Of a stretch of DNA of 3,000 nucleotides, positions 1-3,000 are shown in pieces (the first letter of the stretch is position 1; each line of letters opens with the position of its first letter). The position numbers and the translations under genes are program-made. Source of the DNA: Escherichia coli (GTDB taxonomy: Bacteria > Pseudomonadota > Gammaproteobacteria > Enterobacterales > Enterobacteriaceae); assembly GCF_003334385.1 (NCBI RefSeq), contig NZ_QOWN01000097.1. The stretch is one strand, 5' to 3'. Below the pieces are notes generated by a model, which was given only the letters and a program-made list of their open reading frames with translations, made no database searches and was not told where the DNA came from.

Positions 1-3000
1 ACGCTGGCGCGGCTGTGGGGGGCGCTGCCGCCGGATATCCGGTTAAGCCCGCATCTTTACCTGGCGACCAACAGCGCACAGGGGCCGTGGTGGATACTGG
101 GGTGGTCTGAGCGGGTGCCGGGTGCTGAGGACGTACTGCCAGCGCCGCTGCCGCCGTACCGGGTGCTTACCGGGATGGCGGACCGCTTCGGGCGGACGCT
201 GACGTACCGGCGTGAGGCCGCCGGTGACCTGGCCGGGGAAATCACCGGCGTGACGGACGGTGCCGGGCGGGAGTTCCGTCTGGTGCTGACCACGCAGGCG
301 CAGCGTGCGGAAGAGGCCCGCACCTCTTCGCTATCTTCTTCTGACAGTTCCCGCCCTCTCTCAGCCTCAGCGTTCCCCGACACACTGCCCGGTACCGAAT
401 ACGGCCCCGACAGGGGTATCCGCCTTTCGGCGGTGTGGCTGATGCACGACCCGGCATACCCGGAGAGCCTGCCCGCTGCGCCACTGGTGCGGTACACGTA
501 TACGGAAGCCGGTGAACTGCTGGCGGTATATGACCGCAGCAATACGCAGGTGCGCGCTTTCACGTATGACGCGCAGCACCCGGGCCGGATGGTGGCGCAC
601 CGTTACGCGGGAAGGCCGGAGATGCGCTACCGCTACGACGATACGGGGCGGGTGGTGGAGCAACTGAACCCGGCAGGGTTAAGCTACCGCTATCTTTATG
701 AGCAGGACCGCATCACCGTCACCGACAGCCTGAACCGGCGTGAGGTGCTGCATACAGAAGGCGGGGCCGGGCTGAAACGGGTGGTGAAAAAAGAACTGGC
801 GGACGGCAGCGTCACGCGCAGCGGGTATGACGCGGCAGGAAGGCTCACGGCGCAGACGGACGCGGCGGGACGGAGGACAGAGTACGGTCTGAATGTGGTG
901 TCCGGCGATATCACGGACATCACCACACCGGACGGGCGGGAGACGAAATTTTACTATAACGACGGGAACCAGCTGACGGCGGTGGTGTACCCGGACGGGC
1001 TGGAGAGCCGCCGGGAATATGATGAACCGGGCAGGCTGGTATCGGAGACATCGCGCAGCGGGGAGACAGTACGCTACCGCTACGATGACGCGCACAGTGA
1101 GTTACCGGCGACGACAACGGATGCGACGGGCAGCACCCGGCAGATGACGTGGAGCCGCTACGGGCAGTTGCTGGCGTTCACTGACTGCTCGGGCTACCAG
1201 ACCCGCTATGAATACGACCGCTTCGGCCAGATGACGGCGGTCCACCGCGAGGAAGGCATCAGCCTTTACCGCCGCTATGACAACCGTGGCCGGTTAACCT
1301 CGGTGAAAGACGCACAGGGCCGTGAAACGCGGTATGAATACAACGCCGCAGGCGACCTGACTGCCGTTATCACCCCGGACGGCAACCGGAGCGAGACACA
1401 GTACGATGCGTGGGGAAAGGCGGTCAGCACCACGCAGGGCGGGCTGACGCGCAGTATGGAGTACGATGCTGCCGGACGTGTCATCAGCCTGACCAACGAG
1501 AACGGCAGCCACAGCGTCTTCAGTTACGATGCGCTGGACCGGCTGGTACAGCAGGGCGGCTTTGACGGGCGGACGCAACGTTATCATTATGACCTGACCG
1601 GAAAACTCACACAGAGTGAGGATGAGGGACTTGTCATCCTCTGGTACTACGATGAATCGGACCGTATCACTCACCGCACGGTGAACGGCGAACCGGCAGA
1701 GCAGTGGCAGTATGATGGCCACGGCTGGCTGACAGACATCAGCCACCTGAGCGAAGGCCACCGTGTTGCCGTCCACTATGGCTATGACGATAAAGGCCGC
1801 CTGACCGGCGAATGCCAGACGGTGGAGAACCCGGAGACGGGGGAACTGCTGTGGCAGCATGAGACGAAACACGCATACAACGAGCAGGGGCTGGCAAACC
1901 GCGTCACGCCGGACAGCCTGCCGCCGGTGGAGTGGCTGACGTATGGCAGCGGTTACCTGGCGGGAATGAAGCTGGGCGGGACGCCGCTGGTCGAGTATAC
2001 GCGGGACAGGCTGCACCGTGAGACGGTGCGCAGCTTCGGCAGCATGGCAGGCAGTAATGCCGCATACGAACTGACCAGCACATACACCCCCGCAGGCCAG
2101 TTACAGAGCCAGCACCTGAACAGCCTGGTATATGACCGTGACTACGGGTGGAGTGACAACGGCGACCTGGTGCGCATCAGCGGCCCGCGACAGACGCGGG
2201 AATACGGCTACAGCGCCACGGGCAGGCTGGAGAGTGTGCGCACCCTCGCACCAGACCTGGACATCCGCATCCCGTATGCCACGGACCCGGCGGGCAACCG
2301 GCTGCCGGACCCGGAGCTGCACCCGGACAGTACACTCACAGTGTGGCCGGATAACCGCATCGCGGAGGATGCGCACTATGTCTACCGCCACGATGAATAC
2401 GGCAGGCTGACGGAGAAGACGGACCGCATCCCGGCGGGTGTGATACGGACGGACGACGAGCGGACCCACCACTACCACTACGACAGCCAGCACCGCCTGG
2501 TGTTCTACACGCGGATACAGCATGGCGAGCCACTGGTCGAGAGCCGCTACCTCTACGACCCGCTGGGACGGCGAATGGCAAAACGGGTCTGGCGGCGGGA
2601 GCGTGACCTGACGGGGTGGATGTCGCTGTCGCGTAAACCGGAGGTGACGTGGTATGGCTGGGACGGAGACAGGCTGACGACGGTGCAGACTGACACCACA
2701 CGTATCCAGACGGTATACGAGCCGGGAAGCTTCACGCCGCTCATCCGGGTCGAGACAGAGAACGGCGAGCGGGAAAAAGCGCAGCGGCGCAGCCTGGCAG
2801 AGACGCTCCAGCAGGAAGGGAGTGAGAACGGCCACGGCGTGGTGTTCCCGGCTGAACTGGTGCGGCTGCTGGACAGGCTGGAGGAAGAAATCCGGGCAGA
2901 CCGCGTGAGCAGTGAAAGCCGGGCGTGGCTTGCGCAGTGCGGGCTGACGGTGGAGCAACTGGCCAGACAGGTGGAGCCGGAATACACACCGGCGCGAAAA
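1..3000 (+). CDS. Rhs family protein (RHS/YD-repeat polymorphic toxin core), internal fragment; both the start and the stop lie outside the window
   Basis: Frame +1 is uninterrupted by stop codons for all 1000 codons (my manual translation, line by line). The translation carries many copies of the Rhs/YD motif (Y-x-Y-D-x-x-G-R-L/V), e.g. [13 protein letters not shown] (nt 625-663), [12 protein letters not shown] (1207-1242), [13 protein letters not shown] (1267-1305), [10 protein letters not shown] (1582-1611), [12 protein letters not shown] (1777-1812), [14 protein letters not shown] (2377-2418), [12 protein letters not shown] (2548-2583). The window starts [20 protein letters not shown] and ends ...[15 protein letters not shown], with [26 protein letters not shown] at 2737-2814. 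GC content is high with GC-rich third positions, as known for Rhs cores. Paralog (rhsA/B/C/D-like) cannot be determined from the core alone, so the gene symbol is left empty. Confidence 0.95.
490..2694 (+). repeat. YD-repeat (RHS repeat) array at the protein level within the Rhs CDS; about 25-28 degenerate units of roughly 20-25 residues, not a nucleotide tandem repeat
   Basis: Recurring Y-x-Y-D / YD-x-x-G-R-L motifs in frame +1, at approximately aa 164-178, 189, 209-221, 229-238, 276-286, 318-326, 340-346, 359-362, 403-414, 423-435, 445-453, 468-473, 488-496, 509-516, 528-537, 549-556, 571-577, 593-604, 709-726, 735-745, 793-806, 825-836, 850-861 and 885-898. Unit boundaries are approximate and read by eye. 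Confidence 0.75.

Follow-up and report, generated by a model that had tools for sequence, protein, structure and literature searches.

A probable five-helix accessory domain at the last shell hairpin of Escherichia coli RhsD and its relatives

What interrupts the YD-repeat shell of the Escherichia coli Rhs protein RhsD just before its C-terminal core? The question is raised by a 3,000-nucleotide stretch of E. coli DNA (contig NZ_QOWN01000097.1 of assembly GCF_003334385.1; hereafter the window), in which the original prediction, made from the letters alone, described nucleotides (nt) 2713-3000 as a charged, probably helical, non-repeat insert in the shell. The window is an uninterrupted open reading frame (ORF) in frame +1 across all 3000 bases and matches a portion of E. 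coli SCU-104 rhsD at 100% identity; related copies were found in 3872 of 5426 complete E. coli genomes, at a median of 6 places per genome. The complete gene (L001:3542-7822) encodes 1426 amino acids, residue 1 of the window being RhsD residue 154, and nt 2713-3000 encode RhsD 1058-1153. Rhs proteins are among the commonest polymorphic toxins linked to type VI secretion systems (T6SS), and those of E. coli are the founding members. NCBIfam NF041261 ('RHS element core protein'; model positions 1-1261) covers RhsD 1-1258 with 2787 bits against a cut-off of 2000, TIGR01643 (YD repeats) matches in six stretches, and TIGR03696 (RHS-associated core) matches at 1181-1258. Pfam places PF03527 ('RHS protein') at 1155-1190 and DUF4329, the toxin tip, at 1292-1411, and DPMGL, the DPxGL cleavage motif before the variable tip, ends at residue 1258. 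With this full-length hidden Markov model match, YD repeats, a core domain, the cleavage motif and a predicted cocoon fold, RhsD is a textbook, already known Rhs, and the insert leaves the understanding of its identity unchanged.

The interruption was located by phmmer and profile alignments of RhsD to all solved Rhs shells, which broke at about residue 1071 and restarted at about residue 1154. The loops between the two homologous strands at this site were as follows.

Vibrio parahaemolyticus RhsP (8H8A): about 1 residue
Pseudomonas protegens RhsA (7Q97): about 4 residues
Salmonella bongori Rhs (8QJB-D): about 8 residues
Advenella VgrG-Rhs (8QJA): about 12 residues
Tse5 (8CP6): about 32 residues
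Tse15 (8UXT): about 35-40 residues
RhsD: about 80 residues

Two conserved strands that lie 1-12 residues apart in four shells, and about 32-40 apart in Tse5 and Tse15, are separated by about 80 residues in RhsD, and the claim of a non-repeat insert interrupting the shell therefore stands. Its range held only in part. Whereas nt 2755-3000 (RhsD about 1072-1153) are non-repeat, nt 2713-2754 encode a conserved shell strand, which aligns to every solved Rhs shell and is near-invariant among homologues; the start was therefore corrected to about residue 1072. Regular beta-strands of the shell or degenerate YD repeats, either of which would have spoken against an insert, were confined to these first 14 residues. 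The translation given for frame +1 was exact, but nt 2713 starts one codon before 'YEPGSF', with V. The compositional shift was also real: E makes up 17% of the insert, R 12%, L 11% and A 10%, and the combined fraction of Y, G and D fell from about 0.25 in the shell to 0.07-0.12. The shell resumes at RhsD 1154, just beyond the window edge. Because the insert stops exactly at that edge, it could be read as an insert, and not as the end of the shell, only from the downstream sequence of rhsD.

To model the whole shell, AlphaFold2 (AF2) was given an 81-sequence alignment with RhsD 91-1290 as the first sequence, the sequences having been obtained by searching 1.84 billion representatives, which gave 157,053 hits at E <= 0.001. 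The resulting 1200-residue model had a mean predicted local distance difference test score (pLDDT) of 85.1 and a predicted template modelling score of 0.79. In a Foldseek search with this model, Tse5 was the best match (E = 5e-88, template modelling score (TM) 0.85), followed by all other solved T6SS Rhs shells, and TcB of the Tc toxins and the teneurins appeared as distant structural relatives; as modelled, RhsD is a closed beta-cocoon. The segment was divided as follows, the numbering of AF2 helices (H) and strands (E) being that of RhsD minus 90.

nt 2713-2754, RhsD 1058-1071, plus strand: last shell strand before the insert; ordinary conserved shell, outside the insert
nt 2755-2817, RhsD about 1074-1080 and 1085-1092, plus strand: insert helices 1 and 2 (AF2 H984-990 and H995-1002, pLDDT 79-83)
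nt 2818-2850, RhsD 1093-1103, plus strand: Gly-rich loop, with the lowest pLDDT of the insert (about 65)
nt 2851-2895, RhsD 1104-1118, plus strand: insert helix 3 (AF2 H1014-1028, pLDDT 80-83)
nt 2896-2964, plus strand: turn with a conserved (V/L)S helix cap, and helices 4 and 5 (AF2 H1034-1042 and H1047-1051, pLDDT 88-89)
nt 2965-3000, RhsD 1142-1153, plus strand: return linker (AF2 loop, then strand E1062-1069, which is RhsD 1152-1159)

The description 'probably helical' was borne out by AF2: whether modelled within the 1200-residue shell or in isolation, the segment has five predicted helices with a pLDDT of about 80-90. The ten-residue pLDDT means along the insert were 83, 79, 65 (the Gly-rich loop), 80, 83, 89, 88 and 82. 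When a 107-residue piece was predicted alone from a 25-sequence alignment, the pLDDT was 84.7, the same five helices were obtained and the flanking strands were paired; this model agrees with that of K-12 RhsD (P16919) in the AlphaFold database (AFDB), with a TM of 0.87. Across the whole-shell and isolated predictions, the pLDDT was about 80-93 over four of the five helices. No Pfam match was found over RhsD 1072-1153, even at E <= 10, and the insert matched neither a Pfam-A family nor a solved fold. The 'heptad-like spacing' of the original prediction turned out to be only the periodicity that short amphipathic helices produce; none of the predicted helices is longer than 15 residues. A coiled coil, for which at least three to four continuous heptads were required, was accordingly rejected on that length and on the conserved turns between the helices.

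The strand that precedes the insert (RhsD 1058-1071) has aligned counterparts in Tse5, RhsA, S. bongori Rhs, Tse15 and RhsP, its residues Y1059, P1061, P1066, L1067 and R1069 are 96-100% conserved, and AF2 strand E976-983 lies here. Helix 1 is variable and partly missing in distant homologues, and helix 2 bears the conserved L1085, L1089 and Q1091. V1100 and F1102 are conserved hydrophobic residues of the Gly-rich loop. Helix 3 is the longest and the most amphipathic, with L1106, L1110, L1113 and I1117 on one face, a hydrophobic moment peaking at 0.7-0.88 at 100 degrees, and the conserved acidic residues E1114 and E1116. Helix 4 (1124-1132, SESRAWLAQ), a CGL turn and helix 5 (1137-1141, VEQLA) follow, and this region is conserved at W1129 (76%), L1130 (96%), C1133, G1134, L1135 and L1140. 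The return linker leads into the shell strand AHLYHCDH just past the window end, PF03527 beginning at residue 1155. Between helices 2 and 3, window positions 2824-2838 (RhsD 1095-1099) encode a five-residue extension, SENGH in RhsD and GEDGG in RhsA, RhsB and RhsC. Of the 25 aligned sequences, only 7-8 have it, namely E. coli RhsD and RhsA with their close relatives, whereas the other 17-18 are gapped, more distant homologues lacking it; as far as this alignment goes, it is specific to the E. coli lineage.

The distribution of the insert was examined by comparing loop lengths across the 150 best representatives at the 50%-identity level. The loop had 77-82 residues in close relatives and 68-117 in full-length Rhs at 35-47% identity; a Tse5-like group had loops of 38-56 residues, and two proteins had loops of 9-15. 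The long inserts were alignable, with the pattern sLAxxLxQ ... P.eL...L..LE.eLr.g.LS.esr.WL.q.GL..eqL...L.P, and their hosts included Salmonella enterica, Citrobacter farmeri, Serratia silvae, Comamonas and Paracidovorax/Acidovorax. The conserved positions were overwhelmingly hydrophobic with i/i+3/i+4 spacing (L1085, L1089, V1100, F1102, L1106, L1110, L1113, I1117, V1122, W1129, L1130, C1133, L1135, L1140 and V1144); an LS helix cap, a Gly turn and the acidic pair E1114 and E1116 were also conserved. Judged from sequence conservation, this pattern is the signature of a small globular domain. Three representatives (P0113, P0146 and P0098, from some Comamonas and metagenomic Rhs) had inserts of 90-117 residues with added low-complexity Ser/Gly/Gln stretches, which suggests that the hairpin site is still expanding in some lineages.

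The insert accompanies three unrelated toxin tips, those of RhsD, RhsA and RhsC, and its length is invariant while the tips range from 130 to 168 residues. In addition, long, medium and minimal loops all co-occurred with a PAAR-like N-terminal module, and insert length was uncorrelated with it. By these comparisons of sequence, the insert was shown to be independent of both the toxin tip and the N-terminal PAAR-like module.

K-12 RhsA, RhsB and RhsC carry an insert exactly as long as that of RhsD, to which they are 67% identical over the insert, 78% over the shell and 81% over the core. The ratio of nonsynonymous to synonymous substitution rates (dN/dS) between rhsD and rhsA, rhsB and rhsC, calculated by the Nei-Gojobori method, was 0.29-0.32 in the insert, compared with 0.16-0.17 in the shell and 0.08-0.09 in the core, values that are approximate because dS was about 0.8-1.3 and near saturation. 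No sliding 82-codon window over residues 300-1258 exceeded a dN/dS of 0.276. The comparison indicates that the insert is the least constrained stretch, yet clearly under purifying selection. The guanine-plus-cytosine (GC) fraction of the insert was 0.64, as in the rest of the core, while that of the toxin tip was 0.33-0.38. The insert is therefore native to the core and not a recent graft.

Along L001 7300-8300, the GC fraction falls sharply: the core has about 0.64, the toxin tip and ybbC downstream of it about 0.33. Such a drop is the classic composition break between an Rhs core and its tip. An orphan, N-terminally truncated coding sequence annotated 'RHS repeat-associated core domain' lies downstream of ybbC at L001 8254-8940, with small hypothetical ORFs after it; it resembles a displaced toxin tip accompanied by the immunity gene. 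On the minus strand of the window, a 285-amino-acid antisense ORF occupies positions 2101-2958, and further ORFs occupy 2553-2987 and 2741-2989. Because frame +1 shows protein-level conservation and a dN/dS below 1, these antisense ORFs are probably a by-product of GC-rich coding sequence.

The location of the insert on the shell was approached through the two solved shells with expanded loops at the same hairpin. Tse5 of Pseudomonas aeruginosa has three surface protrusions that are missing from Rhs1 and RhsA, one of which is 'Helical Region 2' (HR2; PMC10684867). HR2 (residues 1031-1062) is resolved, helical and solvent-exposed (PDB 8CP6; PMC10684867). Tse5-Shell comprises residues 48-1168, the residue number being the chain index plus 47, and HR2 (chain positions 984-1015) maps to the loop flanked by the counterparts of the RhsD strands at 1058-1071 and from 1154 onward. 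In Tse15 of Acinetobacter baumannii, residues 1256-1267 of the same hairpin were described as a 'solvent exposed exterior loop' (PDB 8UXT/8UY4; PMC11461821). A second argument comes from volume. The insert (9.3 kDa) would occupy about 11,300 cubic angstroms and RhsD-CT (18.5 kDa) about 22,400, in sum about 33,600, and reported Rhs cavities measure about 25,000-35,000 cubic angstroms (PMC10684867; 10.1101/2024.02.26.582050). Since the insert and RhsD-CT together equal or exceed the cavity volume, an exterior position is favored. By analogy with Tse5 and Tse15 and from this estimate, the predicted surface exposure was supported indirectly, and the insert most likely lies on the exterior of the cocoon, close to the C-terminal pole.

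Two further irregular regions of the shell were observed. Window positions 2314-2448 (RhsD about 925-969) lie at the site of Tse5 'Predicted Helical Region 1' (HR1; 873-914) and have about 45 residues compared with about 65 in Tse5; the phmmer alignment breaks here and AF2 gives a long irregular loop. Of the two Tse5 helical-region sites, RhsD is expanded only at that of HR2. Window positions 295-420 (RhsD 252-293) encode a second non-beta shell element, an AF2 helix at 252-265 followed by a Ser-rich stretch with a pLDDT of about 60-66, which, going by the model, could be either a flexible loop or a further decoration of the surface.

Taken together, these results suggest that RhsD about 1072-1153 is probably a compact five-helix exterior domain at the last shell hairpin, and a clade-specific accessory. 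The domain, of about 80 residues, interrupts the final beta-hairpin of the YD-repeat shell at its tip, directly upstream of the conserved 'RHS core' (PF03527/TIGR03696), which would form the C-terminal plug and the aspartyl autoprotease. According to prediction and conservation, the flanking strands would pair as an ordinary shell hairpin and the helices would pack on the conserved hydrophobic core, and, by reference to Tse5 and Tse15, the domain most likely projects outward from the cocoon close to its C-terminal pole. It is an integral component of the GC-rich Rhs core, passed on vertically within a proteobacterial clade. Encapsulation and autoproteolysis presumably do not require the domain, since shells in which this hairpin is a tight turn carry out both. 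Its role would most likely be that of an accessory on the outside, which either braces the last turn of the shell or offers a surface on which a partner or the target envelope could dock. The suggestion that the segment is an 'interaction or regulatory element' is a conjecture.

Several observations weigh against this interpretation. The long insert was absent from every solved Rhs structure compared. The conserved residues are mostly buried, and besides E1114/E1116 no obvious conserved surface patch was seen. Pairwise scores of Tse5 HR2 against the RhsD insert were not significant relative to shuffled sequences (p of about 0.06 and 0.44), and the analogy with HR2 is therefore positional only. 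A profile alignment of Tse5 to RhsD does reach into the first insert helix, and the short Tse5-like inserts were set against different RhsD helices by MAFFT and by HMMER. Lastly, the near-saturated dS bears on the selection estimates given above. From the mostly buried conservation it follows that a structural decoration fits at least as well as a binding site, and, together with the elevated dN/dS, this tips the balance toward a permissive hairpin carrying a decoration of structural or accessory kind.

A stronger form of the proposal appears doubtful. It holds that the insert represents an undescribed, autonomously folding accessory domain family of one large proteobacterial Rhs clade (E. coli clade I and relatives) with a dedicated role at the C-terminal pole. 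Such a role might, for example, be docking to a partner or the target envelope, or gating of the nearby plug during toxin release. If a dedicated accessory domain were indeed present, E. coli-type shells would be mechanistically distinct from the 'smooth' shells solved so far.

Protein docking in the narrower sense, in which the insert binds a T6SS component or adaptor (the VgrG C-terminus or a chaperone) or mediates Rhs dimerisation, is unlikely, though it draws on several observations. External residues mediate functional dimerisation in RhsP, and dimers of P. protegens RhsA have been seen; the domain has been kept across Gamma- and Betaproteobacteria under purifying selection, and the acidic E1114 and E1116 are conserved. 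However, the surface positions of the insert are the variable ones, its dN/dS is the highest in the core, and its length does not follow the PAAR-like N-terminal loading module. E. coli K-12 is not known to have a T6SS and yet retains the insert, which was counted against docking.

Contact with a membrane is an improbable explanation. The insert would then be part of an amphipathic shell face that binds the target-cell membrane and aids toxin delivery, as proposed for Tse5 HR2, with which it shares the hairpin position and for which molecular dynamics suggested interfacial membrane binding (PMC10684867). Helix 3 is indeed strongly amphipathic, but the insert as a whole is acidic (net charge -4, isoelectric point 5.0) and 34% charged, and its conserved hydrophobic residues resemble a buried core. 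The role of HR2 itself derives from simulation alone, and the Tse5 authors tied HR1 and HR2 to the pore-forming toxin and noted their absence in homologues with enzymatic toxins. No such pore-forming association was found for the RhsD insert, which occurs with three unrelated tips, DUF4329 in RhsD and unrelated ones in RhsA and RhsC; moreover, RhsD is without most of HR1.

A luminal position, with the helices lining the cavity or contributing to the C-terminal plug and touching the toxin, is very improbable: the insert directly precedes the plug/protease core, but the equivalent loop is exterior in both experimental structures, the insert and toxin together would fill or overfill the reported cavities, and the insert length stays constant while unrelated tips vary. 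It is scarcely credible that the segment is a disordered acidic spacer or a heptad-repeat oligomerisation helix, as its E/R/A/L/Q content and heptad-like spacing might suggest, given the high pLDDT over four of the five helices, the conserved hydrophobic core with caps and turns, a longest helix of only about two heptads, and ends that return to adjacent paired strands.

The preferred reading, a compact exterior domain at the last shell hairpin, provides a useful structural annotation and a clean experimental handle, and is unsurprising to a specialist. No description of the insert was found in the searchable literature; it is already implicit in NF041261 and visible in AFDB. The match states of NF041261 span the insert region, but the model treats the core as a single unit and does not delineate the insert as a domain. 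The clade comprising E. coli, Salmonella, Citrobacter, Serratia and the Comamonadaceae, together with the expansions in Tse5 and Tse15, marks a permissive hot-spot for shell decoration. The insert is a clean deletion target for probing the role of the container exterior in loading and delivery, and its hairpin is a possible grafting site for engineered Rhs cages.

Among more distant systems, the beta-propeller of TcB and the NHL and FN-plug domains of teneurins are likewise foreign folded domains carried on a YD-repeat shell. These decorations differ from the RhsD insert in their beta-rich folds, their sizes, their insertion sites and their established partner-binding roles. The smooth T6SS Rhs shells (RhsA 7Q97, RhsP 8H8A, S. 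bongori 8QJB-D, Advenella 8QJA and Photorhabdus Rhs1 7PQ5) share with RhsD the shell architecture, the flanking strands, the RHS core, the DPxGL motif and a PAAR-linked organisation, but have a tight turn of 1-12 residues where RhsD has about 80. The surfaces of T6SS Rhs were described as 'very smooth', without protrusions or 'decorations', in a preprint on the S. bongori and Advenella structures (10.1101/2024.02.26.582050), and the E. coli clade departs from this generalisation. The solved shells all come from clades without the domain, and the generalisation was built on those clades. Tse15 resembles RhsD in having an expanded loop of about 35-40 residues at the same hairpin; its loop is disordered and unresolved in the map, with no folded helical domain reported, whereas the RhsD insert is predicted to be folded. 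Tse5 is the closest solved shell, and its HR2, which is likewise helical and located at the same hairpin before the C-terminal plug, is the closest described feature. HR2 consists of about 32 residues forming one helical element and was interpreted together with a pore-forming toxin. The RhsD-type insert, by contrast, comprises about 80 residues with five predicted helices and occurs with unrelated toxin tips. On the present models, the RhsD-type insert is a much larger, predicted-folded elaboration at the same site.

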